In this document: in pieces, positions 1-37,059 of the stretch
Position numbering within the stretch: position 1 is the stretch's first letter
How the letters are laid out: each line of letters starts with the position of its first letter
NCBI GenBank assembly: GCA_030167865.1
Contig: JALAGF010006300.1
Location: forward strand, 1 to 37,059
Length of the DNA stretch: 37,059 nucleotides
Source: Craspedostauros australis
Taxonomy: Eukaryota
Direction of reading: 5' to 3'
Position numbers and translations under genes: made by a program
The notes under the pieces: model-generated
Seen by the model: only the letters and a program-made list of their open reading frames with translations
Database searches by the model: none
What the model was told of the DNA's origin: nothing

Positions 1-625
1 TGCAGCGGATTCCACGCTGCCGTCAACTTCCCACAATACGATGTAAGTGCAACTCGAATATGGACCGTGCTGTGACTTGGTTGTGTGCATTCACGCACAT
101 GCATATTTTTATGAATACGATGTCTTGGCTCCCTCTATGCCCACGACGCCACACGAAACCACACCGCATCCCCTCACACCACGCCTCACATCATCACATC
201 CGATCTCCCTTGCACTGTTGACTCCCCATTCCACATGTCCCATTCGACATCTTCCATTCCACCGCCACGCACAGTACTATGCGTACCAAGGCAACAAGCC
301 ACTCGGAATGCGCAAGTCCTTCGAACAGTGGAAGAGCGCAAAGGGAAGCGAACGCTGGATGTTCGAAGAGGCCATGCCGAACCTGGAAAGCGCACAGAAG
401 GCAGCCACGACCGTGCAACTTCTCACCCTGCCATCCAAGAACACCATCATGGACCTCGACAACAACTTCTCTGTGCGCGGAAAGAGTGCGTACGGCACGT
501 TCAAGAAGAACATGAACAGAATCGCGAACCATATCGAATTGCGCACCAAGGAGGACGAACGTACCGGCGAGCCGAAGTACGAGTACCTCAAGCCAGAGAA
601 TATCCCTGCATCCATCGACATCTAA
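1..625 (+). CDS. LOX: Lipoxygenase LOX-A, 3' part only (exons <1-42 and 275-625)
   Basis: 1-42 encodes CSGFHAAVNFPQYD (third Fe-His and Asn motif). GT-AG intron 43-274. Last exon YYAYQGNKPLG...YEYLKPENIPASIDI* ends in the C-terminal Ile Fe ligand. Same intron position as the complete copies. Confidence 0.93.
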
Positions 626-2537: not shown

Positions 2538-5500
2538 ATGAAGCTCCACCTCATTTCTGCTGCCGCATCTGGGCTGCTCTGGGCACGCCCAGGTTCCGCC
2601 TTTCAAGCGGCGAAGCCCTTCATCCACCGTGCTGCCGTCCCGCGCACCGTCAACATCAGCCCATTGATGGTCAGCACGGAGAGTGATGTCGCCGATGCCA
2701 TTGAGGATGATGCCACCGAGACGTCCGACCTGACCGAAAAGCAGGCACTGGTTGTAGCAAAGATGCTTAGCAACCTCGAATCTATCGCTGACCTCTCTGG
2801 CGCAGAGACAACAGCCGATGTGTTGGAAGTGGCTCGATTGTTTGCGCGATTGGTGTCGAAAGACTTGAGTCGTGGTCAATCGAACACCGAGTTGGAAAAG
2901 GAATTCGAGAAACTGGGCAAGGAGATCTTTGAATATGGCCTCGCTCTCTATAGCCCGGCCATGTGGGCATCCTACACGTCGGAAGTAGGCCAAGCAATTG
3001 CAAGTGGTGCGGAAGGAAGCATGAGTCTTGACATCTCTCACGTCGCAGACTTGGCCATCGACGAAGCCTCCACCAGCGATGAAAGTTCCACCAGCGATGA
3101 AGGTTCCGCCGGCAGCTCAAGTTTGATAAAGACCATTCAAGAGCTCCTTCCAAACGCGCTTGAGCGCCGTGTCAACTTCGAGTACAACACCTATGGAATT
3201 CATGCAGAGGTGGGTCTGGGTATGCTTCGGAGTGCTTGGGAGTGCGTTTTTTTTCGGAGACCGTCAGGCTCATATTCATGAAAACAGAATCACAAAGGAT
3301 GCCTGCTTGCATCAATTCACACTCACACTCACACTCGCACTCGCACTCACACACGTACTCCATCCATCTTCCCCTTCCAACATATCCGTGCCACAACATC
3401 CTACCCCTTCCTTGTCAATGCACCGCACTGTGCTGCATCGAACGCAGTATCCTGATGTCGAGCTCGACGGGATGATGAAAATGATCGATGGTGTGCCCAG
3501 TGTTGAGTACTGGTTCTCCCTCAAGAAGTTCGTGAGGGTTTTCGCCCAAGTCTTGAAGGTCCAAGCTGGACTCAAGTTGACTGGGCTCGGCCCCGATGCT
3601 GTTAGCACCAAGGAAAACTATGAGAAGCTCTTTCAGCGACCGGGGCTTTTCTATGGCCACTACCCCAACCCCTATCTGCCAGCCCCCCAAAATGCTATCG
3701 ACAATTGGGACAAGGATAAGGAGTTCGCTCGCCAGTTCTTGAACGGCGTCAACCCAGTCATGATCGAAGTGGTCAAGGACAGCGCCAAGCTCACACCAGA
3801 GATGATGAAGTTCTTCGGAAACAAAGAGGGCGTCGACATCGATGCTCTCGCGAAGGACAACAAGCTCTTTTACGTTGACTACGTTGGATTGGCAGACCTC
3901 AAGAAGACGCCTCATCAAGCATATCCAAAGGCGTACAACAACGAAAAAACCCTTGATCCCAACAACCCTGCGGACAAAAAGATCTTGGACAAGGTTGGAA
4001 AAGAACCACGCTACTTCAAGGCACCTATGATCGTGTTCCGCAAGACTGAGGATCTCAAGAATATCGAGATCATGGCCATCCAGCTCGATCGTGAGGCTGA
4101 TTCCAAGGTCTACACTGCTGATAACTCGGGCGATATGGAATGGCAATTTGCCAAGACGACAGTCGCAACCGCAGACTCCCAGTACCATCAGGTGAGCACA
4201 CCGAGCGCGACTTGCTCACGCCAATTGCGACACAAACAACGGATACGTACGAAGAATTGCTTGTTCGCCTATCTGCAATGCGACGTTTGGGGTTGGTGAT
4301 TCTCGACAGCACCGTTCTTGGAATTCTATTCATCTCCTCGCTGTTATCTATCACCTCCTGTCGCTATGTGCCAATGATGCCATCACCAAACTCAATCCTC
4401 TCTCTTTCTCTTCTCTACTGCTTTACTTGTACATCCACGCACACATCCATGTGCGTATGGTTATGCCACTCTTCTTCCTCCTCATGTATTCAATAGTGGT
4501 TGAGCCACTTGGGGAAGACCCATTTGACCATGGAACCACACATCGTCGCCATCCACAACACGCTCCGCCGCCACGACCACAAGCTCTATCCATTCGTCAG
4601 GCCAATGTGTCGTGACACCCTCCTTCTCAACTACGCAGCGCGTCAAACGTTGGCCAAGTTTGGACCGAACAGCTTTGGTGATTACATGACATCTGTCGGA
4701 ACTGGCCAATTCATGCAACTCATCCTGAAGTATTGGGAATCTTACGACTTCTTCAAGTCTTCTGCCTTCGACGAAGAACTCAAAGGTCGCGGATTCACCG
4801 ACGATGTGGATCTTGGAAACTATCGCTACCGCACCGATGGCCAGAAGATCTGGGACGCATACGGCCGCTTCGCAACGAGCTACGTCGACGAGTGCTACAA
4901 GAGCGACACAGAAGTTGTGAACGACAAGATCTTGCAGAAGTGGGCTCACGAAACTAGTGATCCGGGGTGTGCTGCAGTCAAGAAGTTTCCCGGGAAGTTC
5001 GAGTCCAAGGCCCAGTTGGCTAAGACTTTGCAGACTCTCTTCTGGATCTGCAGTGGATTTCACGCTGCCGTCAATTTCCCGCAGTACGATGTGAGTACAT
5101 CTTGAAAGTGACATGAGTGATGGCTCATGGTTTGTCTCGCTGCGGAGACTGCTTGGCATGACGACTAGTTTTCCCGATTGCCCTCTTTGTGCGCACGCCA
5201 TATCCTCATCCCACTTCCCCCTATTTGTTCCATTCCTTCTCTTTGCGTCGACCGCCTTTTTACCATACATTCTCCCTTTGCTCTGCATATGCAGTTCTAC
5301 ACATTTCAAGCCAACAAACCACTCGGGTTCCGCAAGTCCTTCGAACAGTGGGAGGAAGCTGCCGGAAGCGAAGACTGGATGTTCGAAGAGGCCATGCCGA
5401 AGATGGACAGGGCAAAGGAGACCATATCTACCGCGACCGTCTTGACTCTTCCATCCGAGCACACCATCCTGGATCTGGACTACTCTTTCGACAAGATTGG

Positions 5501-5645
5501 AACGGATTCATACAAGGCATTCAAGCAGGAGTTGAAGACCATCTCATCTGAGATCGATGCGCAAAACGAGAAAGGAGCTCGCAGCGGCGAGCCAAAGTAC
5601 GAATACCTCAAGCCAGAGAATGTCCCTGCCTCCATCGACATCTAG
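2538..5645 (+). CDS. LOX: Lipoxygenase LOX-B, predicted plastid-targeted; exons 2538-3209, 3448-4191, 4497-5090, 5295-5645; ~786 aa
   Basis: Three phase-0 GT-AG introns join one open frame. Motifs FARQFLNGVNP, WQFAK, QYHQWLSHLGKTHLTMEP, LNYAAR, HAAVNFPQYD and C-terminal PASIDI. N-terminus MKLHLISAAASGLLWARPGSA|FQ is a signal peptide plus ASAFAP-like motif. Confidence 0.95.
3317..3353 (+). repeat. (CACACT/CGCACT)n microsatellite in LOX-B intron 1
   Basis: About six tandem hexamers. Confidence 0.85.
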
Positions 5646-11410: not shown

Positions 11411-11524
11411 TTGGTTGTGGTGAGTTGTGATGAGTTGTGGTGAGTTGTTGTGGGTTGTGGTGAGTTGTTGTGGGTTGTGGTGAGTTGTTGTGGGTTGTGG
11501 TGAGTTGTTGTGAGTTGAGGTGAG
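11411..11524. repeat. 10-bp minisatellite TG(A/G)GTTGT(G/T)G, ~11 units with 20-bp higher-order alternation
   Basis: tgagttgttg/tgggttgtgg units alternate; lies 140-250 nt upstream of the DUF229-like gene start. Confidence 0.9.
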
Positions 11525-12435: not shown

Positions 12436-15262
12436 GGACAAAAGGAGAAGCCAGAGAATCTCCAAAATTTCTCCGAATGGCTTCTCTTCTTGTTGTCACG
12501 AAGATCGAACATCAACAACACCAACAACACCACCACGAGAGGATTACAACCGAGGACATCGAAGACCCGAGAGGCACAGTGCTGGTGTTTGCAGCAACAA
12601 CAGCTACGACAACAGCTGCACAATTAAACAGAAGCATCGCGGCAGGGACACTGCTCGTAACAGTACTCCCATGAACAACCACGGGGACCATGATGTCTTC
12701 TTCGTGCATCTATCGATGGTTGATTGGTTTGTCAACCGGTCGGCTGGCTCCTCAAACAGCATGCACACTGCCAAGCTTCCAGAAGAATGACCTTCCTCTG
12801 GCTGGTTGTCTGCACAATACATCGGATTGGGAGCTGGGATAATAACCATCATACGGAACATAACAGCAGCGACCGAATCTTGAGAGGTGTTCGTCAGGCT
12901 CATCCAGAGTGATGGCGTTGTCATCTCTCTCTCTCTCCCTCTCCATCTCCATCTTTTTTTCTGGAGAATCTTTGAAGCGGATATGTGGGCAATTCATGTG
13001 ACAGCAATGGCCTATCATCTTGACTGTGCTGTTTCGAACAGATGTCAGCGGCTGATTTCTTTGGGAAGGCCATGGCAATAAATCCCATGCATGGCCAATC
13101 TTGACAGCACGTTTCATGTAGATGACTTAGAGTTCCGTTCGAGCCGTTGAATGGGGTGAACTGTAACCATGGGTGATGTCTGTCAAATGCAGAGCTCTCA
13201 TGTGTTCGGTTCGTTGGCCAGAAGCGACAACCAGGATGGCAGCATTTCGATCATTGGAGGCACCTGGTTCTCCTTCTGGATGTGGTTTTCTGTTCGTGTT
13301 TCGGGCGCATGGAAAAGCCACCAGTCCAACCAGCTGTCTTCGTCCACCCACACAGTTCTGTTGCGTGCCAGCGTGTGCAATAAATTCGAATTGAAAATGT
13401 GAGGAGATTTATGTCGCGGGGAATGAGCGACTTCATTGGATCTTACATGCCGAGAGAACACTTTTGCTCTCGCACCCTTCAGATTTATGATTCCCTGGTC
13501 GACTCCACCGATGTATCGACACGCATTGGGCCGAAATGAGAAATCGCTGGGTGTCCTGGACGCTGTGCATTTTCTTTTTTTTACATCGACAAAGATACGA
13601 CATCAACAACGCCTCACCAAAGACAGAAGCGAGATCGTGATGGGTGGCACCCAAAGATCGGGTGTCAACGACTGAGAGAGTTGCACAATCACAAGAGAGA
13701 AGAAGATCGACAGCAGCAGCAGCACCACTACCAATACCGGCAAGGATTACACTGGAGCAGCACGTACGAGGTATGGCATCAGGAGCAACCTCGACAGCAG
13801 CAAAATCGATAGCAGCAAAATCGATTGCAGCAACATCGATAGCAGCAACGACAACGGCTGAAGCAGCAACGACAACAGTAATGAAGACCGCGGCGATTAT
13901 CATACCTTCTTCGTGCAACTCTCGCGATGTTGCTCGCGAGATCGCACTGCACATCAAACGGATGGATTTGGACAATCAAATCAGCTCATAAAACCGAAAG
14001 TGGATCAAGAACAATCCGCTCATCGCAGAAGCACACACACGCACACAGCATACAAACAAACACAACCGTTCTACCAACACCATGAAGTTCCACCTCGTCT
14101 CTGCCGTCGCAACCGGCCTGCTCTGGGCATGCCCGAGTTCCGCCTTTCAACCCGCGAAACCATTCATCGCCCGTGCCACGGCTCCGCGCCAGCTCAACAT
14201 CGGTCCTTTGATGGATAGCGCCGAAAAGGAGCTCGAGGAGCTGGCCAAGGGTAACATCGGGGCTGTCGCCACTGATGCCAGTGAAGAGACCTCTGGGCTC
14301 ACACCTGATCAGGCGAAGGTCATCTCCGGACTGGTCCAAGACCTCGACACCTTCATGGGTGAGGGAACGGGAGACGCAGCGGCCGACAAGCAAAAGCAAG
14401 CGTTGGTGGGAAAGCTGGTCGCCGAGCTGGCCGCCAAAGACTACACCGACAACAACGAGGATCCTGACTTGGAGAAGAGGATGAAGTTCTTGCTCACGAA
14501 GATCATGGAGTACCGATCGATCAGCGCCCTCAATACCGAGAAAGTTGGCACTAACGCCTCGTCCGCGAAAAGTTCAGCGATTTCCAAGATCATCATGTTG
14601 GCACTCAAAGATTTGCTTGATAACGGACTTCCCATGGGATACGCTACATACCCACGGCATGCAGAGGTACGTACGCTTGGAAGACTGCGCGCGTGCTCAG
14701 TAGTGTCGCCAGCCCGGCGAACAATTGATTTCACGAACTCACATACTCTCTCTCTCTCTCTCTTCACTTCAACACACCTGTTCCACATTCGATCACGCAA
14801 TGCAATGCCATCTCAATCCCTCTCGCGATGCTTTCCATCGCGCTACCTGACACGACTCGACACGACACCAAACGCAGTACCCTGACGTTGATCTGTCGGG
14901 ATTGATGAAGATGGTCAATGGCATGCCGGGAACTGATTACTGGTTCTCTTTCAAGAAGACCTTGAGAGTGCTTGTCCGAGCCTTCCGCGGGCTGGCCGGC
15001 CTTGCCACGAACCCGCTTACAGCTACCGATACCTCCTCGGTGGACAACTACCAGCGAATCTTCAAGAACAAGGACACAGGCATGGATAACGAATTGATTC
15101 CGCCTCCAAAGCATGCCATTGCCTACTGGACAAAGGATGAAGAGTTCGCCCGCCAGTTCTTGAACGGCGTCAACCCCGTCATGATCGAAGTCGTGAAGGA
15201 CAGCACCAAGCTCACGCCCCAGCTGACCGACTTCTTCGCTTCGGAGCCGGATGTCGACGTCG
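12436..15262 (+). repeat. Segmental duplication copy A (~1.65 kb upstream region plus 5' part of LOX-C)
   Basis: Collinear and highly similar to 34245-37059, beginning at CAAAAGGAGAAGCCAGAGAATCTCCAAAATTTCTCCGAA. The other end cannot be defined because copy B leaves the window. Confidence 0.93.
13783..13850 (+). repeat. 15-bp tandem repeat GCAGCAA(A/C)ATCGA(T/C)A upstream of LOX-C (4+ units; two fewer in the LOX-E copy at ~35601-35637)
   Basis: Direct comparison of the two duplicated copies. Confidence 0.8.
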
Positions 15263-17089
15263 CTACTCTTATCGCCGCCAACGAGCTCTTTTGCGTCGAC
15301 TACATTGGCCTGGCGGACCTCACAAAGATGCCGCATCAGGCATACCCAGAGGCCTACAACAATGATAACTACCTTGATCCCTCCGTCCCTTATGACCAGT
15401 CGATCTTGGACAAGGTTGGAAATGAGCCACGCTACTTCAAGGCACCGATGATCGTGTTCCGCAAGGCCGCGGATCAGAGCAACATCGAGATCATCGGCAT
15501 CCAGCTCGACCGCGGTGATGGTGCCAAGGTCTTCACGTCTGCAAACTCTGGTGCTAACGAGTGGCTCTTCGCCAAGACCACAGTTGCGACCGCAGACTCC
15601 CAATACCATGAGGTAAGCACAATGGATATTGCTTGTCTATGTGAACGGACACAACACAGCCGACAAAGACATCGCGAGGAGGGCCTTCTCATGTCGCTGT
15701 CCACCATTCGGCCTTCCCTGGGCTTTCCTATTATTGATTGCAATATTGCGATGCTGCTGCCCTGTATCGCGTCATCGCTGCCATCAGAATTCTCTGCAAT
15801 GCATCATGGCCACCGCATACCATTGCGCCGGCGACTAGTAATCACCAAACTCAATCCTCCTTCTTCCTCTTTTTCCGCACCTACACACTCACATACCATG
15901 CGGACGCGTGTACTCTATGTCACTCATATACAATAGTGGTTGACCCATTTGGGAAAGACCCACTTGACCATGGAGCCACACATCGTCGCCATCCACAACA
16001 CGCTCAAGAAGAGCAATCACAAGATCTACCCATTCGTCAAGCCCATGTGCCGTGATACTCTCTTCCTCAACTACTTCGCCCGTCGAACTCTGGCTGAATT
16101 CGGGCCCGACAGCTTCGGCGATTATATGACATCCGTCGGAACCGGGCAGTACATGCAGGTTCTCCTGAAGTACTGGGAGGGATACCACTTCTTTGAATCT
16201 TCTTCCTTCGATCAGGAGCTCGAAAGCCGTGGATTCACCAGCGACGTGACCCTCGGAAACTACCGCTACCGCACCGATGGTCAGAAGATCTGGGACGCAT
16301 ACGGCCGCTTCACAACGAGCTATGTTGATGAGCTTTTCGTCGACGATGCAGAAGTCGCAAGCGACGTCGGATTGCAAGAGTGGGCCCACGAAACCACCAC
16401 GAAAAGTCGTGCTGCGATCAACGGTTTCCCCGAGAAGTTCGAAACCAAGGCCGTGTTGGCTAGCACCTTGCAGACGCTGTTCTGGATCTGCAGTGGATTC
16501 CACGCCGCTGTCAACTTCCCACAATACGATGTAAGTGCAACTCGAAGATGACGCGAGGTGCATCATGTTTGCATGCTTCTTCGATTGAGATGGAGCGCGA
16601 CTGTTTGTGTTCGTGGCAAAAATGATGACGGACTTGAACCGCCAGCTCACTCTCTCCGTTCCTTGCATCTGCTGCCAACCTCCATCTTTTGCCTCCATCC
16701 GCACCCAATCATACCTGACTTTCTTCATCTGTCCACAGTACTTTGGATACCAAGCCAACAAGCCGCTCGGAATCCGCAAGTCCTTCGAAGACTGGCAGGC
16801 AGCAACCGGAGACGAAGACTGGATTTTCGAGGAGGCCATGCCACACTTGGACAAGGCACAGGAGTCGCTCCTCACCGTGCAGGTGCTGACGTTGCCATCG
16901 AAGCACACCATCCTCGATCTCGATTACTGTTTCGAGACGGCCGGAAACGCCGCGTACACGGCATTCAAGGCGGAGCTCAACACCATCTCGTCTGAGATCG
17001 CAGAGCGCGGTTTGCAGGACGAGCGCGAAGGCATGCCGGCCTACAACTACCTCAAGCCAGAGAACATCCCTGCCTCTATCGACATCTAA
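14082..17089 (+). CDS. LOX: Lipoxygenase LOX-C, predicted plastid-targeted; exons 14082-14666, 14878-15612, 15937-16530, 16739-17089; ~754 aa
   Basis: Same exon architecture. Motifs FARQFLNGVNP, WLFAK, YHEWLTHLGKTHLTMEP, FLNYFAR, HAAVNFPQYD, PASIDI*. Presequence ...LLWACPSSA|FQPAKP. Confidence 0.95.
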
Positions 17090-17345
17090 AGCGTCCGTGT
17101 CCTTTGATGTCTACGGTGGCGACAGTCGGAGCTTTGCTCTGCTGTGAGACCAGACGGCACGCTCAGATCCAACCAAACCAACCTTACCGAATCCAATCGA
17201 CTTGCCTGTCCGGAGACTGTGGCGAACTACACCTTGTGGAAGCAAATGTAGACGTAACCACGATCCTTTGGCAATCGTTAAAACAATCTCTAGTGAAATA
17301 CTACACATGCAAATGAAGCTTGAACTCCTTCCGCAAGTATCAGTA
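17090..17345 (+). repeat. LOX-C 3' flank, highly similar to 5646-5895
   Basis: Direct comparison with 5646-5895. Confidence 0.9.
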
Positions 17346-18706: not shown

Positions 18707-21700
18707 ATGAAGTTGCACCTCATCTCTGCCGCCGTAGCCGGCATGTTGTGGGCGTGCCCGGGCTCTGCCTTCCAGACGGCGAGACCCTTCGTCTCACGTG
18801 CCACGGCTCCACGTCACGTCAACATCGGTCCATTGATGGACAGCGCCGCGACAGAGGTCAAAGAACTCGAAGAGGGCGGTCTCGTGGGCATCGCAGCTGG
18901 CGCCATCGGCGAGACATCCGAGCTGAGCGAAGATCAGGCAGAGACCATCGCCGCGATGCTTGGCAAGCTCGAGGCGCTCAGCGAACTCACAGGCAAACAG
19001 AAGACTGCCGATGGGTTGCTGTTGGCCCAGTTGTTTTTCCGGCTCTCCGCCAAGGACCTCAGTCGCGGTCAATCGGCCGCCGAGCTGAACGAGGAATTCT
19101 TGGAGCTGGGGACTCAGATGATGGTCTACTACGGCGCCATCGCCAATTCCAGCAAACAGCGCACGGGAGGAACCTCGAGCTTCACCGGTGGCTCGAATCT
19201 GGCAAAGTTGCTTCGGGAAACGTTGCAAAAGGCGCTGCGGCGCCCAGCTACTATCGATTACGCAACATACCCCGTGTATGAGGAGGTACGTACGTACGCA
19301 TGGGCTTGCAGATGTATGTCCACGCACGAAACTGCGGTGATGTTGGTAGACGATACCAACGCCGATCTACTCGTCCCAGCAATCGATGCTGCGTTCCTCC
19401 AAATACCGGACTCTCGTGTTCAACATATCCGTGCCTATTCTCATATGCACACTCATACTCATTCCCATACCCATGACACATCATCTCATGTCTTCTTGTC
19501 TACCATGTCACGCTGCATCCACACAGTACCCCAACGTCCAGCTCTCTGGAATGATGAAAATGGTGAAGGGCGTGCCCAGCGTCGAGTACTGGTTCTCGTT
19601 CAAGAAGTTCGTGAGAGTCATTACCCGTGCCTTGCGGTCTCTGGCTGGGGTGGCCGTAAACCCGCTCACTGCCGATGACGTCTCCACAAAGAAGAACTAC
19701 GAGAGGATTTTCAAAGCAGAACTATCTCAGAAGTACGGGATTGAGGGTCCGAATCTGTTCCTGCCAATGCCTGAATACACCTTCAATCATTGGACGGAGG
19801 ATCAAGAGTTCGCTCGCCAGTTCTTGAACGGCGTCAATCCAGTCATGATCGAAGTTGTGAAAGACTCTGCCAAGCTCACGCCAGAGCTGCTCGACTTCTT
19901 CAAACAGGAGGGCGATGTCGACATCGATGCTCTCGCCAAGTCCAACAAGCTCTTCTACGTGAACTACATCGGCTTGGCAGACCTCACGACGAATCCCCAC
20001 CAGGCGTATCCGGAGGCGTACAACAACCCGACGTACACCAATGATACTGCCATCCTCGATCGTGTCGGAAAGGAGCCACGCTACTTCAAGGCACCGATGA
20101 TCGTGTTCCGCAAGACGGAGGATCTCAAGAACATTGAGATCATGGCCATCCAGCTTGACCGTGGCGCCGGTTCGAAGGTCTACACGGCTGACAACTCGGG
20201 TGACATGGAATGGCTGTTTGCCAAGGAAACTGTCGCGACCGCGGACTCCCAATACCACGAGGTAAGCAGATGATGCATTGTGCCGCGCGTTAACGGAGCT
20301 TTCGGCAATAGCAGCAGCTGCTGCTGCTCCTGAGGAAGGGTCGCTCGCTCAGATGTGAATCAGCGGAGAGACTTCACAAGAGACAGTCTTTCGTTGCATT
20401 GGTATTGGTCGGCGGGTGCTTTCCATCTCCGCGCTGCCATCTATCATTCTGCTGCACAAATGCGCCGATGCAACCACCGACTACCGGCAAATCGGACCTA
20501 ACAAGCTCATTCCTCCTCCTCCCTCTTTGTCGCTGTACATACTCGTATACACCCACACTGTTCAACAGTGGGTCAGCCATCTGGGAAAGACGCATTTGAC
20601 GATGGAACCACACATCGTCGCTATCCACAACACACTCCGCCAGGAAAATCACAAAGTCTATCCATTCGTCAGACCAATGTGCCGCGACACGCTCCTTCTC
20701 AACTACGCAGCACGTCAGACGTTGGCCAAATTCGGACCTGATAGCTTTGGCGACTACATGACATCTGTCGGAACCGGACAGTTCATGCAACTCATCCTGA
20801 AGTATTGGGAGTCTTACGACTTCTTCAAGTCCTCCGCCTTCGACGAAGAGCTGGAGTCTCGAGGATTCACCGACGATGTGACTCTCGCAAACTACCGCTA
20901 CCGCACCGACGGCCAGAAGATCTGGGGAGCCTACGGACGCTTCGCGACGCAGTATGTTGACGAATGTTACACTGAGGATGCAGAAGTCGCGAGTGACACC
21001 GGGTTGCAGAAGTGGGCCACGGAGACCACCGGGGAAAGCACCGCCGCGATCAAAGGTTTCCCCAAGAAGTTCGAGTCCAAGGCTCAGCTGGCCAAAACCC
21101 TGCAGACCCTGTTCTGGCTCTGCAGTGGGCTCCATGCCGCCGTCAACTACCCGCAGTACGACGTAAGTGCATTTGTGCAGAGGTTGCGCCAGGGCTGAGT
21201 CCTTCTTCTTCAACCGCAGGCGCGTGAATGTGCGTATGGTATGGACCTCCTGAACTCACCTCCCTTTGCCTCTCATCGTCATTCCTTGGATTCGATTCCT
21301 TTTCTGCTGGACACCTGCTTCTGCTCTCGACTTCGCATTCCCCAACCATCCAAAACCTCAGTACTATGCGTACCAAGCCAACAAACCGCTCGGAATCCGC
21401 AAGTCCTTCGAAGAGTGGAAGGAGGCCAACGGGAGCGAGGATTGGATGTTCGAGGAGGCCATGCCGCTCTTGGACAAGGCGCAGGAAGCAGCGGTGACGG
21501 TGCAACTGCTGACGCTGCCATCCGAGCACACCATCCTTGATCTCGATTACTGCTTCGAGACGTACGGGAAGGACGCGTACGCAGCATTCAAGGAGGAATT
21601 GAAGACCATCTCGAGCCAGATCGATGCGCGCAACGAGGAAGATGCCCTCGCAGGCGAGCCGAAGTACGAGTACCTCAAGCCGGAGAATGTGCCTGCCTCT

Positions 21701-21712
21701 GTCGACATTTAG
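18707..21712 (+). CDS. LOX: Lipoxygenase LOX-D, predicted plastid-targeted; exons 18707-19285, 19527-20261, 20569-21162, 21362-21712; ~752 aa
   Basis: Same exon architecture. Motifs FARQFLNGVNP, WLFAK, YHEWVSHLGKTHLTMEP, LNYAAR, HAAVNYPQYD, PASVDI*. Presequence ...MLWACPGSA|FQTARP. Confidence 0.95.
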
Positions 21713-25968: not shown

Positions 25969-26904
25969 ACTGTGTCACACCATTTATCACCGCGTTACAT
26001 AATCGTGTTTGATTGGACAAAACACGTCCTCCAATCGCGCCCACCGTGTTTTGTCGGGCTGGCGTGGAAATCGTGTGGTCGGAGGAGTCGCAAAAAAGTG
26101 GATTGCGCGTGCTTGCGTTTTGAGTGTTCGCAAATGCTACGGCGTGGGAGAGTAGCTCGCAGAGGATGTGGAGACGCAACCACGGAGACACGATCGTGAT
26201 GCAGGCAGCATGGTTCTTGCTATGGCATGCTTGATCTCCGTAGCACGGTTGCGACCACTATTTGTTCAACGTGTATTCTCCGTATTTCTCGTTTGATGAT
26301 GGACCTCAATACTCTCTCTCTCTCTCTCCGTCCAGAGTCATCACGAGATTCCACGCTAATCGGTGATCGATTTCGGCATCGCAGTTTTCGGTTCACTTCC
26401 GGCGGCCTCGCGATTGACTTTGGCCTTCTCCGACAAGTCATGCACCGTGAAATCTCAACGAAAAATCAGAAAGGCAGCGTGCGCCGAAGTTCACGTTCGC
26501 CGTGTTGAGCCGCCTTGCCACGCAGCGATCATCGTCGTGTATAGTACATGAAGAGCACACGCCTCCAATCGAAGACGTCGAGGCCACTCGCCAGGGGTTT
26601 TCCTCAGAGTGGTCAATGAAGTCATGTGTGTGATGCACGACTTGCAATTGCTCGGAACTTGGTGTTGTCTCCGGAGAGAGGCCCATGTAGCTCGCAGGTC
26701 GCAGAGTGTAGCTTCAGCCAGAGCATTGCAACAACGCAGTTAGCTCCGCAAGCCCTGTCCTGTCATAGATTCATAAGACCCTCATCTTTGAATCGCAAAT
26801 AGGACTCTCTACTCTACACACTTTACGATTGCATGCTTGGGATCCAGTGCGATATTCTAAAATACATGCCACGAGCACTACATGTCACATGACCAAGTTA
26901 CGGA

Positions 26905-29900
26905 TCATTGTTGTACGTGCGCGCGCGCTGATCTCAACTTCTCCACCTTCCTCGTTGCACCCCATTCCTCGTACAGCCGAATGGCTTCTTCCATGACCTG
27001 ATCGGCCGCATCGTCCATCCCCATCCTTGTCAAGCACTCCGAAAGGCGCTCATTCGCCAGCGCTTGATCGTTCGTGAAGCCGCAACTTGTGGCGAGATCG
27101 ATCGCATCCTTGAACTTCACGACGGCAGAGTCAAACTTGGATCGCACCATCTTGTGTTCTGCTTGCACCAACGCGTAGCTGTGTTGGCAGTTTGGGTTGC
27201 CCATGTCGGCCCACTTCTGGAGCTGCTTGCGGCACCGGTCTCCTTGCTTGCGGTATGTGGCTGCTTTCGATTTGCTGGAGGTTGTGTAGCTCGTAGCGTA
27301 GCAGCAGATGCTGCCGTACGCTGCGACAACTGGAAGTTGGCTTACTCCTGGAATTTTCTTCAACAGCTCGTCGAAGGATTCCAGAGACGTGACTGCGCCG
27401 CTCTCAAAGTCGGCCAAGAACGTAACTGCGATCAGCCGGTATGCCATCGTAAAAAGGGCAGCGGTCTCATCTATCTGCTCAGGTGGCTGCGCGAAGAAGG
27501 CATCTTCATCGAACACGTGTCCTTTCAGCTTGGTTTCATGGTCGGAAAGGCCCCGGAGATTTTGCACGGCCTGCCAACTGATGTCGAGATAGTATTTTTG
27601 CTCGAGTTGCTGAGCGTCGTTCATGGTATGGGCGAAACTCAGCATGTCCCGATCCAGTTGAGCTAGCGGTTTGCCAATGAACATCTCGATTTGTAGATGA
27701 TTGGAGCGACTTCGAAATGCTGAAAGGACATCACCGGATGCCATGCCCAGCTCGTAGGCTCTCCACATTTGCTGCAAGATACCCTCCATCGGCCTTATCC
27801 AATGCATAGTGCCTCCATGCAGCGTGTAGATTACCTTACTTTTGCAGCTTTGATTGGATGCGTGATCCGTCATCTGTATGGAGATATCGCCAATCGTTTC
27901 CGCGGTTTTGAGATCTCCCATCACATGGCCGAAGATATAGGCGAGATGGGCAAAGGCCGAAGATGAGTAAGGCAGTATGCCATGCTTCATTGTCTTACCC
28001 ACGGACTCAAGAATGGCCAACGGGAACAGTTCCGGAGCAACGAAGAAAGACATACTAACCAGCTGGTCCAGCACTTGCATCGCAGCTACTTGTGTTGGAT
28101 CCGTGCACAATGGCATGCTTCGAAAGGACTCCACAGTCCATCTCGGTGCCACTCGTTTCATCTTGAGGAGACCACGTATCACCTTGAAGTTCCTGCCAAA
28201 CTTGCTTCTTGGGAACCTGCATCCAAGTTGGCCTAACACAGACATGATTGTTGGGATCGTCTTCGTTGTCCGAATTTCGTGAGGTCCAATGAAGACACCA
28301 TCGATAACGATGCGGTACGCCCGGACCTTGTCAAGGATGGAGCAATCCAATGACAACACGCTCGAGCAGTATCGTTCCACCTCATCGGTGTTTGCATTGA
28401 TGTACGCGCATTCGGCGGCCGACGAAAAGATGTCGATGCTCTGATGAAGATGGGTCTTCCAATGATCAGATGGCAACAGCTCCATTGCCGTCCGGAAATA
28501 CTCCGCCGCAGCTTGGAATGCAGCGCATTCGACAGCAAGCTGACCTGCCTTGGAGTTGAGCATGGCGATCCTCATGCGACGATCGGTGTGCTGAGCAGTG
28601 GCGGGTACGAGATCGAGCCTGGCATTGATGAGGCCAGCGATCATGTGGACCTTGTCCTCTCGTATCTCACCCTTCGAGTATGAGGTGAGCAAGACATCAC
28701 CAACTCTGTGCCGCAGCTCGGAGAGCTTGTCTTGAGGAACGAGCGACAGTGCAGCTTCCTGGACTTGATCGTGGATGAAGGTGTATCGATACCCTTGCTT
28801 TCCATTGGCGTTGTTCGTGGGCTGCTGCTGAGTGCCGATGCCCGTATCCTTCGTTCCAGACTTTCGGCGTTGAGAGCTGCGATGCAGATGTTGCTCGATG
28901 AGACCTTCTCTCTCACAGACATCCAGACTTTGTTGAATACCTTCGTACGAGATGAGGTGCGCCTGTTGCCGTTGCAGCTCTTGTGACCGCTCCGATTGAC
29001 GGAGGGATGAAGCACCATGCGACCGTTGTGATCCATCCGATCTCTGAGATGCATCTGATGACTGTGAAGATGGCATCAGCGCAGCATTCTCATCTGACGT
29101 CAACAGATCCTTGAAGAACGCTCTGTGGCCGGAGTGGATGGACAGTGTCCGGATCGCAAGGATCAGCCTGCGGTTCGAGAATGTGGATCCAAGGCATGCC
29201 GCGATCGGCAGCACGTGACGAGCAGCGTCCAGACGATCCAGCTTCTGCTTCATCAGATCAACCATATTGGCCGTGGCGGATGACCCGGCCATGATCTTCT
29301 GCTCGTCCCAGATCCATTTCATCCCGCCGTCCTCATCCACGGACAGCAGCTTCTCGTACACCAGCGACTCGAGGAACTGCTTCATGAAGAAGATGTTGCC
29401 TCCAGTCTTGCGGTGCACAATGTCAGCAAGACCGTTCACGTCGTCGTCNNNNNNNNNNNNNNNNNNNNNNNNNNNNNNNNNNNNNNNNNNNNNNNNNNCG
29501 AGGAACTGCTTCATGAAGAAGATGTTGCCTCCAGTCTTGCGGTGCACAATGTCAGCAAGACCGTTCACGTCGTCGTCATTGTCGGGCAGGAGGATCTCGA
29601 CGAGAAGATGGCGGACGCTCTGCAACGGTAGATCTTGGATCGGGATGTCAAGGATACGGATGGATCTCTCTCGTTTGCATTCTTGAAGAGCCGTGATCAT
29701 GTCTTGAAGGCCTTGGCTTTGATCGAGCTCATTGGATCTGAAGCATCCGATGATCATCAGGGATGAGATGTCGCCATCCATCGCCCATGTCTGCATGATG
29801 TCGATCGATGCCTTGTCAGCCCATTGGATGTCGTCCATCATGATCACCAGCGGGCTGTGATTGCAGACGATCCGAAGGAATCGCTTGAGCGTGTGCTTGA

Positions 29901-30936
29901 TTCGATCGGACTTCGCTTTGTATCCTTCCGTGACTGCGACTGATGCTGATTGAGCGGATAGATCAAGTCCATGAGCAGCCGATCCTGAGGTGGATGTTCT
30001 CGTGAACGAAGATTGTTTGATCAGAGATTGCTCACGAATGTCATGCGATGATGTGCTTGCATCTTCATCGGCATGTGCGCTGACATCATCATCGCTAATT
30101 TCTTGAAGGTCATGGCCCTTGTTCTGTCGATCTGCAATTGCATTGTTGGTGCTCTCGCCGACCATCATCTCAAGTAGACCTGGAATGATCTTGTACAGGG
30201 TCTTGAGCTCCTTCGATGACAGACGCCGAATCAATGCTTGGTGCAATGTCGAGAATCTTCGCGGATCGTCCACTGCCGCAGCAGCCATACGAGTATCCTC
30301 CTGAGGCAATGCCATGATCTGCTCCACCAGCTGGCCCATCGCGTTCTTGATGCCCGCGTACGGTTCCTCCATCTGCTGAAGATCGAACTTGCCAGAAATG
30401 AAGAAGGCGAAGTTGTCGAGGCAGTGCTGCTTGTAGTGCATGGCGAGTGCGGACTTGCCGCTTCCTGATGGTCCCGAGATGAAGCATACTGTCTTCAGAC
30501 TTGTGCGATGGCGCTGCTCGCGACGTTGCTGTTTGTGATGCATTTCGTCTTCACTGTTGTGGTTGGAGGTGAAGCTATCACTGCTGGTGGTGGTGCTGGT
30601 GGTGGTGATGCTGGTGCTATCCAGATTTCGCGTGCCTTGGGTGGCTCGCTTTCTGTTGAGCATCTGATTGATGGCATTGGATAGCACCCGTTTCTCCTTG
30701 TCCCGCCCAACGATTCCAGCGCGGTCGAAGTTGAAGGCATAACCATGTTGATGGGCAAGGGATAGTCCGCTGCTGGTGAGCGAGTCTGTGTCTGACATGT
30801 TGGTCGATGGATCGTTGAGGCTCTTCGTGCTGCTCGTCCTGTTCTTGTGCAGCATGTTGGACTGGGGTGTGCCGGCCAGCGGCACGGGAGACGATGTCGT
30901 TGTTGTCATTGTCGTCATCGTTGGCGTTGATGTCAT
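26905..30936 (-). CDS. STAND-class P-loop ATPase (AAA_16-like) with C-terminal TPR-like helical repeats; ~1300 aa after gap correction
   Basis: GIVGRDKE, Walker A ISGPSGSGKS, SGKFD...EPY, Walker B IMMDDIQWAD, HRKTGGNIFF, YTFIHDQVQEAA, C-terminal ALANERL...AIRLYEEWGATRKV. These match the ATPase-TPR core of bacterial STK/ATPase/histidine-kinase sensors. Confidence 0.85.
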   Translation of the reverse strand: MTSTPTMTTMTTTTSSPVPLAGTPQSNMLHKNRTSSTKSLNDPSTNMSDTDSLTSSGLSLAHQHGYAFNFDRAGIVGRDKEKRVLSNAINQMLNRKRATQGTRNLDSTSITTTSTTTSSDSFTSNHNSEDEMHHKQQRREQRHRTSLKTVCFISGPSGSGKSALAMHYKQHCLDNFAFFISGKFDLQQMEEPYAGIKNAMGQLVEQIMALPQEDTRMAAAAVDDPRRFSTLHQALIRRLSSKELKTLYKIIPGLLEMMVGESTNNAIADRQNKGHDLQEISDDDVSAHADEDASTSSHDIREQSLIKQSSFTRTSTSGSAAHGLDLSAQSASVAVTEGYKAKSDRIKHTLKRFLRIVCNHSPLVIMMDDIQWADKASIDIMQTWAMDGDISSLMIIGCFRSNELDQSQGLQDMITALQECKRERSIRILDIPIQDLPLQSVRHLLVEILLPDNDDDVNGLADIVHRKTGGNIFFMKQFLXXXXXXXXXXXXXXXXXDDDVNGLADIVHRKTGGNIFFMKQFLESLVYEKLLSVDEDGGMKWIWDEQKIMAGSSATANMVDLMKQKLDRLDAARHVLPIAACLGSTFSNRRLILAIRTLSIHSGHRAFFKDLLTSDENAALMPSSQSSDASQRSDGSQRSHGASSLRQSERSQELQRQQAHLISYEGIQQSLDVCEREGLIEQHLHRSSQRRKSGTKDTGIGTQQQPTNNANGKQGYRYTFIHDQVQEAALSLVPQDKLSELRHRVGDVLLTSYSKGEIREDKVHMIAGLINARLDLVPATAQHTDRRMRIAMLNSKAGQLAVECAAFQAAAEYFRTAMELLPSDHWKTHLHQSIDIFSSAAECAYINANTDEVERYCSSVLSLDCSILDKVRAYRIVIDGVFIGPHEIRTTKTIPTIMSVLGQLGCRFPRSKFGRNFKVIRGLLKMKRVAPRWTVESFRSMPLCTDPTQVAAMQVLDQLVSMSFFVAPELFPLAILESVGKTMKHGILPYSSSAFAHLAYIFGHVMGDLKTAETIGDISIQMTDHASNQSCKSKVIYTLHGGTMHWIRPMEGILQQMWRAYELGMASGDVLSAFRSRSNHLQIEMFIGKPLAQLDRDMLSFAHTMNDAQQLEQKYYLDISWQAVQNLRGLSDHETKLKGHVFDEDAFFAQPPEQIDETAALFTMAYRLIAVTFLADFESGAVTSLESFDELLKKIPGVSQLPVVAAYGSICCYATSYTTSSKSKAATYRKQGDRCRKQLQKWADMGNPNCQHSYALVQAEHKMVRSKFDSAVVKFKDAIDLATSCGFTNDQALANERLSECLTRMGMDDAADQVMEEAIRLYEEWGATRKVEKLRSARAHVQQ
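29449..29498. other. Assembly gap (50 N) flanked by an identical 79-bp overlap (29370-29448 = 29499-29577)
   Basis: Direct comparison of the sequence on both sides of the N run. Confidence 0.95.
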
Positions 30937-31651
30937 TGCGATCGTCGATTTGGCTGTTGTGGATGTCGAAATTGTGGAACGGTCTTGTGGATGCCGACTT
31001 TGAGGTGCCAGCTCCGGTTTCAGTTTGTGATCTCCAGCTGCACTGGGCGTTGCGTTTGTTCATTCTGGCAAGTGCAAATTCGTTCCACAATGCGATAGCG
31101 CCTCCACTGGAAAGTTGTTATCCCCTTGGCGAGGGCAATTTCCTCCTTCCGCTCTCCCTGTTGGGCAGTTTCAGGCATCTGTGTATCGATGCGGCAGCGC
31201 CCGAAACATCCCCAGCTGGAGAGGACGAGTTCTGCAGTTCTTGGCAGATGATACCAAGATGATGCAAGGGCGCGTCGCCACAAACTTCGTGTCTGTTGTC
31301 GGGTGCCTTGACTCGCACGAAATACTGGCACGGCCGCCCGGATCGTTCACAAAAGTACTTGCGTCTCGCTGGGAACGCGAAACGGAAGTTGACCTTTTGT
31401 GCGGTGTATCGGACCTCGAAATCACGAAGTTGGTTTTCGCGTTGGCACCCGCGTTGATATTTGTGGATTTGGTCACAACATGCTTTTGGGAATGACGTGG
31501 AACGAGTGTTCAGCTTTCGACACGTTCTACTTCACCACGCAAAGGGGACATTGATGACGTGGAAAAACAATCATTGGCAAATGTTGTATTTACGGACTTT
31601 TCCTACTACTGTATTGAGTTGTTTGTTTCGAGTTGGATTTCGAATGCTATT

Positions 31652-34247
31652 CCCTAGTTGCAGTTCAACTAAGAACGGACTACTTTCTCATTTGGGGTGT
31701 CCTGTATCGTCGCTTGAAATAGCCTTTTGGCGCGAAATTGAGCAAGCCCGACAATGGCCAGACACTTCCTTTGCCCCCCCCTCTTTTAAAGTTACGAACC
31801 ATTCCTGGTTCCCATGCTACGGTCCGTCTATCCAATCAACGCATGTGGGAACTATATGCTCCTTCGATCCTGTCAGATGGGCTTCACTTGGATTCCCTTT
31901 TACTGCTACGACATCCGCTGACTATGTTGGCTCTGTCGTCAACAATCCAAGTTGCTTCAACCACAGCAATGGAATCCTAACGCAAGTCCATACCGCCGAC
32001 ACCTGCTGCATTGTTCCTACAACTTCAACAGCTGCTGAAGCCACAAGACCTTTTGCATGATGTCATCAGTAATCAAGAGGAGAAGAACTGATGGAAAGTA
32101 AGGCCTCTTCTCAGCACTGAACCATGAGGGTCAGTGCAGAGCCGTGCCAACCTGTTAAGCATCGTTTCTTCATCCTGCCTACAACAATACTAACTCATAA
32201 AATCCCACAAGTTCAGATTAGTACAACATTACTACTCTATTCATCGTTACAAGTCCTAATAGCCAACAGCGTTCAAGCCCAGCGAACTGCGTCAATCGGT
32301 CTTCATCTGAAGCTGGCAGTCCACAAGGCCTTCTCCGGTTCGTCTGCAAAGGCACACGGATTTCAACTCCCTCAAAGACCCAGACCCCCAAAATTGGTTA
32401 CATTTGGTTACAGTTGACTACGGATGTTGGACCCATTTTTCCCAAACTCAGACTTCGTTTTATAGACACTCGATCCAACATCTCTTCATATCTACATTAA
32501 CTTAAGAGACAGGGCTATCCAGGCAAGTGATAGCATTCTAACACTGTCACTTGTCGAGATGTACATGTGAGTATATGTCAAGATGTACGTGTATATGTGA
32601 ATCGGTCACCCATTTTTTCTTATCCATGTTCGGACGGTACAACTACATTCGTGTAGATAGTATGCTGTGATTTGTCAAAATCAGTGGAAATGGAACACAC
32701 GAAAATGAGCAGAATTTCTGGAGGAAATTTGCAATCAACGATTTCTGAGAGAATTAGAAGATCGTCCGTCCATCCATCAATGGAAACGTATGGTATCGAG
32801 CAAAGCTCGATGTACCTCCCAACTAGACCCCAGATGACAATATCATCTGACAGACCATCGCATCATGGATGGAACGTGACATCTGGAGAGCAGAAGGACG
32901 ACAGCTGACATCAACAGGATGTCATCATGTCACCACGTCAACATCTGTCTCCATGTCAGAAGCAGAAGGTGAAGATTTGATGACCGAAGGGCATTGAGAT
33001 CATGGATACAGGAGGTGAAGTTCAAATGGTAAGTACTCACAGAGTAGGAACCAGCAATGAACAAACAGAGTGTTGAATGTGGAGCACGCATCGAACACAG
33101 AATATTGTGTAACACGCACATGCAACATTGGAGAGAGAGAGAGAGAATACAAAGAGTGGCGAGAGAGCATCTCGCGTATCGACTCATAGTCGGAGATTGA
33201 ATCTACGAAACAGATAAACGCGCCAAGAGCATCAGGCAAGAGAACGGACACTGAGAGGATCGGAGTACCAACGTAATGAAATAGCAAACAGAACGACTAT
33301 CAACCAACACCGTCTTCCACGATCATAGGCTTCCAATCACGGAACTTGCCAACACACCTGGCCCTCTTTTTCACCCTCAATACAACCTCATATGCCACAT
33401 CATGGATCCCGATTCCAGTTGGATTTTCGTGTGCTGGTAGGACATGATCCGGAAGGGAAGGCCTTGCTACCCGTCAGATTCAATGAAGCTGATGATGCAG
33501 TTTGCGAGGGTGAACCGTCTGGGTGATAGTTGTAAATGACAATGAGTAGAGTAGTGTTGCTGTGCTGGTCTTGAGTTGTGCTATTGGTTCTTTTGAATAG
33601 TCTGCATTGTGAGTTGATCAGTTTGAGATGAAGGATGAAGAAACGCTGTTCAGTTTGATGGTGCGGCTCTAATACTGACCCTCAGAGGTTCAGTGCTAAG
33701 GACGGACGAGGCTCCTCTCTCTCTCACTCTCATTCTCCACTATCTGTGGTAGTTGTTCTATGCTCAAGTACAAAGCCTTGACATCTTGATTGAGGTTGTA
33801 ATTGAGAACACAGGTTGTCAGGTGATAGGAATTGCAGCTGAATTCCCTGCTCATGTTGAAGCAGGGCGGATCTCCTTATTGTTATCGTGTGGAGTTGGTA
33901 GTTGACATAGCTGGCAATGGAATCGAGATTGGCTGTGGCACAAGGATTCAGAGGAGCATATAGTCCCCGGTGTACATTGAGTCCAGCGAATCAAGTGGTT
34001 TTGAGTCAGCAATGATTGGCGAATGAGAGTGGGAGAATGAGGGAAAGGAGTGATTGTTCCGTATTTGTTGGCGGATGGTTTCGCGCCAAAATTGACGCGC
34101 CAAAAACAATTTTACGGTGCGACATGGGATACACTAAGTGGAAAGTAGTCTGTTCTTGAGATGAACTTCAACTAGTGTTTGTTCCTAAGTGAACTTCATG
34201 ACGTAGTCTGTCCCTTCCTGAATTCCGACTATTTAAACAAACTAGGG
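31652..34247. mobile_element. Putative degenerate non-autonomous DNA transposon or foldback element with ~0.7-0.8-kb inverted arms (31652-~32368 and ~33417-34247)
   Basis: Ordered reverse-complement matches: 31671-87/34141-57, 31725-37/34079-91, 31851-63/33952-64, 32113-35/33674-97, 32163-76/33632-45, 32324-33/33457-66. Termini CCCTAGTT...AACTAGGG. No transposase ORF or TSD seen. Confidence 0.55.
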
Positions 34248-37059
34248 CAAAAGGAGAAGCCAGAGAATCTCCAAAATTTCTCCGAACCGCTTCTCTTTTT
34301 GTTGTCGCGAAGATCGAACATCAACAACACCAACAATACCAACACCACCACGAGAAGATTACAACGGAGGACATCGAGGAACCGAGAGGCACACTGCTGG
34401 TGTTTGCAGCAACAAAAACTACGACAACAGCTGCACAATTAAACAGAAGCATGGCGGCAGGGACACTGCTCGTAACAGTACTCCCATGAACAACCACGTT
34501 GACCAGAATGTCTTATTCGTGCATCTATCGATGGTTGATTGGTTTGTCAACCGGTTGGCTGGCTCCTCAAGCAGCATGCACACTGCCAAGCTTCCAGAAG
34601 AATGACCTTCCTCTGGCTGGTTGTCTGCACAATACATCGGATTGGGAGCTGAGATAATAACCATCATACGGAACATAACAGCAGCGACCGAATCTTGAGA
34701 GGTGTTCGTCAGGCTCATCCAGAGTGATGGGGTTGTCATCTCTCTCTCCCTCTCCATCTCCATCTTTTCCTCTGGAGAATCTTTGGAGCGGATGCGTGGG
34801 CGACTCATGTGACAGCAATGGCCTATCATCTTGGCTGTGCTGCTTCGAACAGATGGCAGCGGCTGGTTTCTTCGCGAAGGCCGTGGCAATAAATCCCATG
34901 CACGGGCAATCTTGACACCACGTTTCATGCAGATGGCTTCGAGTTCCGGTTGAGCCGTTGAATGGGATCAACTGGATCCGCAAGTGACGTTCGCCAAGTG
35001 AAAAGATCTCATTTGCTTGGTTCGCAGGCCAGAAGCGACATCCAGGATGGCAGCATTTCGATCATTGGAGGCACCTGGTTCTCCTTTGGACGCGGTTTTC
35101 CATTCGAAATTACTCTGCGTACCACACTAGCACAAAACCCATCAGTCCAACCAGCTGTCTTCGTCCACCCACACAGTTCTGTTGTGTGCCAGCGTGTGCC
35201 ATAAATTCGAATTGAAAATGTGAGGAGATTTATGCCACGGGGAATGAGCGACTTCATTGGATCTTCCCTCATAACGGAACACTTTTGCTCTCACATCCTT
35301 CAGATTTATGATTCCTAGTCGACTCCACTGAGTTATCAACGCGCATTGGGCCGAAATGAGAAATCTCCAGTCGCGCTGAACGCTGTGTGCATTTTCTCTT
35401 TCCCACATCGATAAAGATACGACATCAACAACACCTCACCGGAGGCAGTAGCGAGATCGTGATGGCACCCAAAGATCGGGTGTCAACGACTGAGAGAGTT
35501 GCACAATCGCAAGAGAGAAGAAGATCGACAGCAGCAGCACCACCACTACCAATACCGGCAAGGATTACACTGGAGCAGCACGTACGAGGTATGGCATCTG
35601 GAGCAACATCGATAGCAGCAACATCGACAGCAGCAACGACAACAGCTGAAGCAACGACAACAGCAATGAAGACCGCGGCGATGATCATGCTTTCTTCGTG
35701 CAACTCTCGCGATGTTGCTCGCGAGATCGCACTGCACATCAAAGAGATCGATTTGGACAATCAAATCAGCTCATAAAACCGAAAGTGGATCAAGAACAAT
35801 CCGCTCATCGCAGAAGCACACGCACGCACACAGCATACAAACAAACACAAAACAAGCACAACCGTTCTACCAACACCATGAAGTTCCACCTCGTCTCTGC
35901 CGTCGCAACCGGCCTGCTCTGGGCATGCCCGAGCTCCGCCTTTCAACCCGCGAAACCATTCATCGCCCGTGCCACGGCTCCGCGCCAGCTCAACATCGGT
36001 CCTTTGATGGATAGCGCCGAAAAGGAGCTCGAGGAGCTGGCGAAGGGTAACATCGGGGCTGTCGCCACTGATGACAGTGAAGAGACCTCTGGGCTCACAC
36101 CTGATCAGGCGAAGGTCATCTCCGGATTGGTCCAAGACCTCGACACCTTCATGGGCGAGGGAACGGGAGACGCAGCGGCCGACAAGCAAAAGCAAGCGTT
36201 GGTGGGGAAGCTGGTCGCCGAGCTGGCCGCCAAAGACTACACCGACAACAACGAGGATCCTGACTTGGAGAAGAGGATGAAGTCCTTGTTCTTGAAGATC
36301 ATGGAGTACCGATCGATCAGCGCCCTCAATACCGAGAAAGCTGGAACTAAATCCTCGTCAACGAAGGCAACAGTATTGTCCAACCTCATTGAGCTGGTAA
36401 TCAAAAATCAGATCAAAAACAAACTTCCCTTGGGGTACGCTACATACCCAGTGCATGCAGAGGTACGAACGCTCGGAAGACCGCGCACGCATGCTCAGCA
36501 CTGTCGCCAACCATGGCGAGCAATTGCTTTCACGAACTCACATACTCTCTCTCTCTCTCTCTCTTCACTTCAACACACCTGTACCACATTCTATCATTTA
36601 ATGCAATGCCATCTCAATCCTTCTGCCCCATGCGTGTCATTGCACTGCGCTACACCACACCACATCGAACACAGTATCCTGACGTTGAGCTCTCGGGATT
36701 GATGAAGATGGTCAATGGCATGCCGGGAACTGATTACTGGTTCTCTTTCAAGAAGTTCGTGAGAGTGCTTGCGCGAGCTTTGCGAGGACAGGCCGGCCTT
36801 GCTACGAACCCGCTTACAGCTAGCGATACCTCCACGGTGGACAACTACCAGCGAATCTTCAAGAACAAGGACACAGGCATGGATAATGAGTTTCTCCCAC
36901 CCCCAAGGCAAGCCATCGGCTCCTGGACGAAGGATGAAGAGTTCGCCCGCCAGTTCTTGAACGGCGTCAACCCCATCATGATCGAAGTCGTGAAGGACAG
37001 CACCAAGCTCACGCCCCAGCTGACCGACTTCTTCGCTTCGGAGCCGGATGTCGACGTCG
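34245..37059 (+). repeat. Segmental duplication copy B (upstream region plus 5' part of LOX-E)
   Basis: Collinear with 12436-15262. Confidence 0.93.
35878..37059 (+). CDS. LOX: Lipoxygenase LOX-E, 5' part only (exon 1 35878-36462, exon 2 36675->37059); recent paralogue of LOX-C
   Basis: Exon 1 is near-identical to LOX-C for ~130 codons. GT-AG intron 36463-36674. Exon 2 YPDVELSG...FARQFLNGVNPIMIEVV stays open to the window end. Confidence 0.92.

Follow-up and report, generated by a model that had tools for sequence, protein, structure and literature searches.

The window is the whole of contig C6300 of the Craspedostauros australis assembly and contains 37,059 nucleotides. The assembly is eukaryotic and contains 65.9 Mb in 6734 contigs. 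Five lipoxygenase (LOX) genes, A to E, were found on the + strand of the contig. LOX-A is present as its 3' end only, and LOX-E is truncated by the contig end. Phase-0 GT-AG introns lie at the same places in LOX-A to LOX-E. More LOX copies were found on at least eight other contigs of the assembly. Coordinates are given in Table 1.

Table 1. Lipoxygenase genes, the two copies of the duplicated block and the divergence patches (positions are those of the window; E was compared with C; patch P4 was read on contig C1100 and is placed by its position in LOX-C)
Feature	Position	Counterpart in LOX-C	Strand	Details
LOX-A, 3' end	1..625		+	multi-copy C6136-type family; 93.6% to C6136, exon 4 differs at 7/351 nt; 71% to C exon 4
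LOX-B	2538..5645		+	older paralogue
C copy of block	12436..17099		+	about 4.7 kb; likeness to C1100 stops about 10 nt past the stop codon
LOX-C	14082..17089		+	four exons (14082-14666, 14878-15612, 15937-16530, 16739-17089), 754 aa, GT-AG phase-0 introns
C stretch with no E counterpart in the assembly	15263..16513		+	1251 bp; catalytic core, exon 3
LOX-D	18707..21712		+	older paralogue, yardstick for the C/E comparison
E copy of block	34245..37059		+	1.6 kb of upstream DNA and the 5' part of LOX-E, cut by contig end; probable continuation on G000:C1100:1-586
LOX-E	35878 to contig end		+	5' part only in window
LOX-E exon 1	35878..36462		+	signal/transit-like presequence (about codons 1-43) and PLAT-less N-terminal region
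Homogenised tract, codons 1-135	35878..36282		+	6/405 nt differ from C: 1 replacement (A66D), 5 silent
P0, codons 136-139	36283..36294	14487-14498	+	3 residues differ; 4 replacement, 0 silent changes
P1, codons 155-192	36340..36453	14544-14657	+	20/38 residues differ; dN 0.40, dS 0.46; linker and amphipathic helix ahead of Y-A-T-Y motif
LOX-E intron 1	36463..36674		+	32/206 aligned sites differ from C, 21/83 in 3' part
P2, codons 223-234	36756..36791	14959-14994	+	5/12 residues differ: T/F223, L/V224, V/A228, F/L231, L/Q234; helix alpha2 equivalent
P3, codons 268-278	36891..36923	15094-15126	+	6/11 residues differ; precedes W-x-x-D motif; mostly silent-rich, dS > dN
P4, codons 681-687		16865..16885	+	S/A681, L/A682, L/I683, V/L687 vs C1100; penultimate helix

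LOX-C and LOX-E were identified as lipoxygenases by the Pfam family PF00305. Exon 2 of LOX-C scored 31.2 bits, its exon 3 scored 97.4 and exon 2 of LOX-E scored 25.4, all above the cut-off of 23.6 bits. Dioxygenase activity on polyunsaturated fatty acids is predicted only. LOX-C contains the complete set of iron ligands (H444, H449, H629, N633 and the C-terminal I754) with H-x4-H and H-x3-N spacing. Exon 3 of LOX-E, with the iron-ligand region, is unassembled; the C-terminal Ile is encoded on contig C1100, its probable 3' end. Exon 1 matched no Pfam family, and no PLAT domain was detected in it. Its residues 44-195 had no usable match in the ESM Atlas, and in an hhalign comparison of LOX-E exon 1 with the family profile the match was confined to the last 14 residues. 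No LOX structure was retrieved when exon 4 served as the sole query. The presequence contains an S-S-A-F-type motif, by which we take it to be plastid targeting. Exon 1 of B, C, D and E (about residues 44-190) contains a few conserved helical blocks with linkers that are highly variable among the paralogues. No closer orthologue of C and E was found (3 matches among 1413 candidates and 8 among 8000; 95 representatives, the best about 55% identical). Of four homologue clusters that were looked up, two bear diatom names, in keeping with a probable diatom. For the C locus neither RNA nor DNA runs were listed, which weighs in neither direction.

The window also contains several other open frames. 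A 1720-codon frame with two DUF229 (sulfatase-like) stretches lies between LOX-B and LOX-C (6441-11603, - strand). A 534-codon frame (22070-23674, + strand) has no Pfam match. It contains an E-T-G-F-G-S-G-like motif that presumably recalls methyltransferases. The frame at 23683-25974 (- strand) encodes a UQ_con (ubiquitin-conjugating) domain after a long low-complexity region. At 29370-29577, a 79-bp exact repeat flanks a 50-N gap inside the minus-strand ORF 26905-31059 and is an assembly artefact; the part of this ORF that was scanned had no Pfam match. The DNA downstream of LOX-B and LOX-C is 79-83% alike for hundreds of bases past the stop codons (5307-5953 vs 16751-17398 and 6042-6162 vs 17650-17771), unlike that of C and E. 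This likeness may be the edge of an older duplication or a conversion tract.

LOX-C and LOX-E lie in two copies of one block. The E copy (34245-37059) is 88.7% identical to 12436-15262 over 2863 columns. Contig C1100 (positions 1-586) is 95% identical to the 3' end of the C copy (16514-17099), and the probable exon 4 of LOX-E on it differs from that of C at 21/351 nt. Only two 5' ends of the C/E type occur in the whole assembly, and gene A falls in a different sub-family, so by elimination C1100 probably carries the 3' end of LOX-E. Gene A itself was considered as the missing end and was rejected because it belongs to the C6136-type family.

The neighbours of C and E are unrelated, upstream and downstream. 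The two genes are therefore paralogues, not alleles. We consider it extremely unlikely that the pair is an assembly artefact, with the reads of two copies merged or with C and E as alleles. Such an origin would fit the missing middle of LOX-E and the 50-N scaffold gap between C and E (29449-29498). It would also fit the broken ends of LOX-E, since the last 84 nt of C6300 and the first 84 nt of C1100 are identical to C. These matches of exactly 84 nt suggest that E is broken at a near-identical repeat that was collapsed in the assembly. The differences between the C and E flanks are scattered throughout (longest internal identical run, 107 nt), which speaks against merged reads, as do the unrelated neighbours on both sides.

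LOX-C and LOX-E differ at 39 of the 323 comparable residues. The differences are clustered. The best 30 codons hold 23.3 replacement differences vs a permutation mean of 9.9, a value reached in 0 of 20,000 permutations. Four patches were delimited in the window (P0 to P3) and a fifth on C1100 (P4), with limits chosen after the data had been seen. An earlier sequence-only reading had described about 130 initial codons with one A/D difference, followed by divergence in two short segments. The first point is confirmed over codons 1-135, with five silent changes besides, and all three peptide pairs quoted in that reading are present. The clustering stands, and the count of two does not: the window holds four, of which P0 had been missed, and the fifth patch lies on another contig. 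The genes had also been described as nearly identical again after the divergent segments. This rests on 43 codons, because the window ends inside LOX-E, and the probable exon 4 on C1100 holds a further patch, P4. P4 contains 5 replacement and 0 silent changes, and the adjoining intron differs at 4/207 sites.

Non-coding divergence peaks inside the block too. The values are 47/229 sites at 34901-35140 and 21/83 sites in the 3' portion of intron 1. The peak at 34901-35140 (vs about 13090-13320) adjoins stretches with 2% difference and could be regulatory.

Silent sites are raised in the patches together with replacement sites. In the 69 patch codons, pN is 0.274 and pS is 0.395 (pN/pS 0.69). In the other 254 codons, pS is 0.047 and pN is 0.008. 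Codons for the same residue differ between C and E at 12/31 in the patches, 6/70 in the links between them and 13/270 outside (P 6e-4 and 3.5e-7), with the patch limits for this test set by amino-acid differences only. Outside the patches altogether, links included, 19/340 same-residue codons differ. The ratio of replacement to silent changes in the patches is not significantly above that elsewhere (P 0.07 and 0.12). There is thus no sign of diversifying selection from dN/dS, and the silent excess indicates that the patches are older and not merely faster in protein. The sequence-only reading had offered diversifying selection or patchy gene conversion. The former, in the sense of dN/dS > 1, is not seen, with pS above pN, and the latter is the likely process.

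It is very unlikely that the genes were duplicated recently, underwent no conversion and then diverged in the patches by a burst of positive selection. Such a history would account for the strong clustering of the replacement changes. It would also suit P2, where the C codons at 223, 224 and 231 depart from those that E has in common with most of the other paralogues (compared directly with C and E to judge which way the codons changed), and the branch lengths, which are 0.17 for C vs 0.08 for E. But purely silent codon differences are about 8-fold enriched in the patches. Protein selection alone does not produce such a silent-site excess, which, with a pN/pS below 1, largely refutes this explanation.

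Interlocus gene conversion very probably homogenised most of the block and left the islands behind. LOX-D was used as the yardstick. In the N-terminus, same-residue codons differ at 5/129 between C and E vs 25/55 between C and D. The corresponding values are 6/70 vs 19/37 in the links and 12/31 vs 14/21 in the patches. The C and E branches add up to 0.85 in the tree of 61 patch columns, vs 0.04 in that of 108 non-patch columns. The two genes are sisters in both trees (bootstrap 80 and 100). Codons 44-135 are the most variable region of the family, with a mean pairwise identity of 0.24 among the other LOXs. Here C and E differ at 1/92 residues. In the presequence they differ at 0/43. One conversion tract explains both the identical presequence and the identity at all but one of the 92 residues after it. 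The targeting peptide had been singled out as more conserved than the mature enzyme. It is indeed identical, but so are nearly all of the mature residues that follow it, and its conservation follows from homogenisation and not from a constraint of its own. Mitotic recombination is frequent in diatoms according to the available text of bioRxiv 2020.11.08.373134, between homologues and not paralogues.

A second near-identical LOX set (93-99%) is present in the assembly. It comprises copies on C6136, C225, C1788, C1801, C1789, C6039, C1740 (minus strand) and C1741 and the LOX-A end at 1-625 of the window. These may be alleles or paralogues. The copies of this set, too, agree fully over their first 160 codons, an identity to which contig-end overlap may contribute. 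Exon 3 occurs in two versions, with 5 replacement and 2 silent changes at codons 39-74 in the arch-helix/pocket region and alpha2 nearly unchanged. On C6039 (L028), the start of exon 4 is present in two tandem copies, possibly by assembly overlap.

Alternatively, one of the two genes could have received its patches from a third sequence, be it another paralogue, a copy since lost or a divergent allele. We judge this highly improbable. In P2, E is as near to D (25/36 nt) as to C (26/36), and in P4 it matches gene A at 19/24 nt, the same as C. The fragmented assembly may moreover lack copies. Against this, no assembled paralogue is nearer than the twin in P1 (at most 50/114 vs 78/114) or P3 (at most 27/45 vs 32/45). 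In P2 and P4, silent codon choices common to C and E are absent from D, B and G, and the two genes are still sisters on the patch columns. No donor paralogue was found among seven copies.

The patches were mapped onto LOX helices by sequence and profile alignment, with a profile of 65 sequences. P2 aligns ungapped and with high posterior to G174-M185 of 5-LOX. It also aligns to 11R-LOX and 15-LOX-2. Helix alpha2 of 5-LOX comprises residues 171-197, and alpha2 rims the active site (PMC9418500, available text). By this alignment P2 is the only patch of the window that corresponds to alpha2. The helix after the P-x-E-x-x-F-S-x-K-K motif had been named as alpha2 from the sequence alone, and the ungapped alignment to 5-LOX agrees. 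The divergent segments had been called predicted lid segments. Two such segments are not supported, with P1 placed weakly upstream of alpha2 and P3 before the W-x-x-D motif. P1 matches, with low posterior, the helix that comes first in the catalytic domain of 5-LOX and 11R-LOX, ahead of the Y-x-W motif. The distance from K222 to W279 is 57 residues vs 53 in 5-LOX. This alpha2-to-Trp spacing leaves no room for the long bacterial two-helix lid (alpha2A/alpha2B); the EnLOX lid has about 140 residues (PMC10690365, available text).

The P2 changes sit at the equivalents of 5-LOX 174, 175, 179, 182 and 185. Of 18 helix positions 7 are on the hydrophobic face, and four of the five changes are among these (P 0.047); the 5 basic positions are unchanged. 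The plug equivalents of 5-LOX F177 and Y181 (V226 and A230) are the same in C and E. P4 was placed on the penultimate helix by two methods. Residue 681 corresponds to 8R-LOX A620 and 5-LOX H600, and residue 687 corresponds to 8R-LOX I626. In the available text of PMC10968607, the pocket of 8R-LOX is closed at its back by A620, and I626 is one of the residues that orient the substrate. The P1 and P3 regions are absent from the list of 8R-LOX substrate contacts in that text.

C and E would thus derive from one segmental duplication in the tandem array, of greater age than their overall identity implies. Most of the block, including the presequence, N-terminal region, core and intron 3, would have been reset by repeated conversion between the two loci. 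In the short islands the earlier divergence would survive, both at silent and at replacement sites. The alpha2 and penultimate-helix islands may have been kept because conversion would erase a difference in the shape of the substrate channel, bearing on the substrate or the site of oxygenation. P3 and P1, which is larger, are possibly neutral or structural companions. We give about an even chance to this view as a whole, a conversion mosaic in which at least the alpha2 and penultimate-helix islands are kept for a difference in channel shape. Selection keeping some of the islands is a similarly balanced proposition. The position of these islands hints that C and E may make different products.

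The sequence-only reading had named an equal rise of dS in the patches as one result that would refute it, and dS was found raised there as well. By its own test, that reading fails. The test was too strict, since protection from conversion also lifts dS. Selection against conversion leaves a general divergence peak around the protected site (PMC3924837 and PMC2588116, available text), so raised dS does not exclude selection.

The islands may also be a neutral conversion patchwork that protects no function. They would then persist by chance, or loosely constrained segments would drift beyond the identity needed for pairing. We consider this possible but somewhat doubtful. Silent sites are raised as much as replacement sites, and the non-coding peaks (47/229 and 21/83 sites) reach 20-25% divergence, both as such a patchwork would have it. 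The patches also fall in family-variable regions. The residues at which C and E differ are variable in the family as a whole (0.75 vs 0.46), and in older pairs silent divergence is also somewhat higher in the patch regions. The same caveat is voiced for the GOT1 paralogues (PMC3728101) and for divergence scans (PMC2588116) in the available text of these papers. Outside the patches, however, only 6/165 family-variable positions differ between C and E vs 31/50 inside. The tiny P4 island lies on a pocket helix and contains replacement changes only. Three sharp islands are also rare in neutral simulations.

In a toy simulation, the island pattern appeared in 49/2052 matching runs with protected sites vs 5/2098 and 1/465 without them, with statistics that were chosen after the data had been seen. 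The runs numbered 18,631, 15,570 and 15,078 in all. An initial grid had been badly set and was uninformative (0/150 in each of 11 settings). The simulation favours protected sites by about 10:1, and under this model selection at the pocket helices is plausible.

The T223-L224-V228 state of C recurs in P0001 and P0002, and the F-V-A state of E recurs in paralogue G, in a separate clade (two cases only). PLAT-less diatom LOXs might contain a specificity switch. It would be a recurrent alpha2 face with two states (F-V-x-x-x-A vs T-L-x-x-x-V), acting together with the penultimate helix and with the N-terminal helices that replace PLAT. Selection would shield exactly this co-adapted set from conversion in C and E, and the same switch would have arisen separately in the G/P0001/P0002 clade. 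We regard this proposal as unlikely. If it is true, C and E are a natural swap experiment.

The islands are known from one genome and one C/E pair. The determinants of positional specificity in diatom LOXs rest largely on modelling, and oxylipin profiles vary between species (PMC10968607, available text). A near-identical pair whose differences come to about 40 residues in five islands narrows the candidates for this specificity to a short list that can be tested. If the islands are protected, a protist enzyme joins the few cases kept against gene conversion. If they are neutral, the pair is a case of ordinary concerted evolution in a tandem array.

A literature search, with limited coverage of subscription papers, found no report of such islands or of this gene conversion pattern in LOX genes. 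Among solved structures, the best relatives of C and E are coral 8R-LOX, human 5-LOX, 11R-LOX and 15-LOX-2. They share with C and E a single alpha2 of like spacing and the penultimate helix, and with LOX-C the iron ligands. Unlike these animal-type enzymes, C and E have no detected PLAT domain, and their N-terminus contains a presequence and a variable region. LOX-C also has A488 at the position of 8R-LOX G427. A diatom LOX modelling study describes the same H-x4-H and H-x3-N spacing as in LOX-C and discusses pocket positions 620 and 626 as shaping specificity, in a comparison across species (PMC10968607, available text). The LOXs of the brown alga Saccharina japonica are also from a stramenopile, expanded in tandem and PLAT-less, with dN/dS < 1 (PMC5712309, available text). 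They were modelled on the bacterial lid type, and the term gene conversion is absent from the main text of that paper as available.

By its pattern the C/E pair appears to be a fresh case of one already described in opsin, RH and GOT1 genes, known here from one genome. In the Teshima-Innan model, in the human red/green opsins and in Drosophila CG18281/CG17637, short divergence peaks lie near putative functional sites in homogenised paralogues, as in C and E (PMC3924837 and PMC2588116, available text). The opsin and Drosophila peaks are shared across species, and the opsin peaks are tied to measured function, whereas C and E come from one genome and have non-coding peaks too. The Tigriopus genes GOT1p1 and GOT1p2 likewise encode paralogous enzymes and have islands in their exons, surrounded by converted sequence; selection was suggested for them and is unproven (PMC3728101, available text). 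The GOT1 study had population data; for C and E, known LOX helices allow the islands to be placed.
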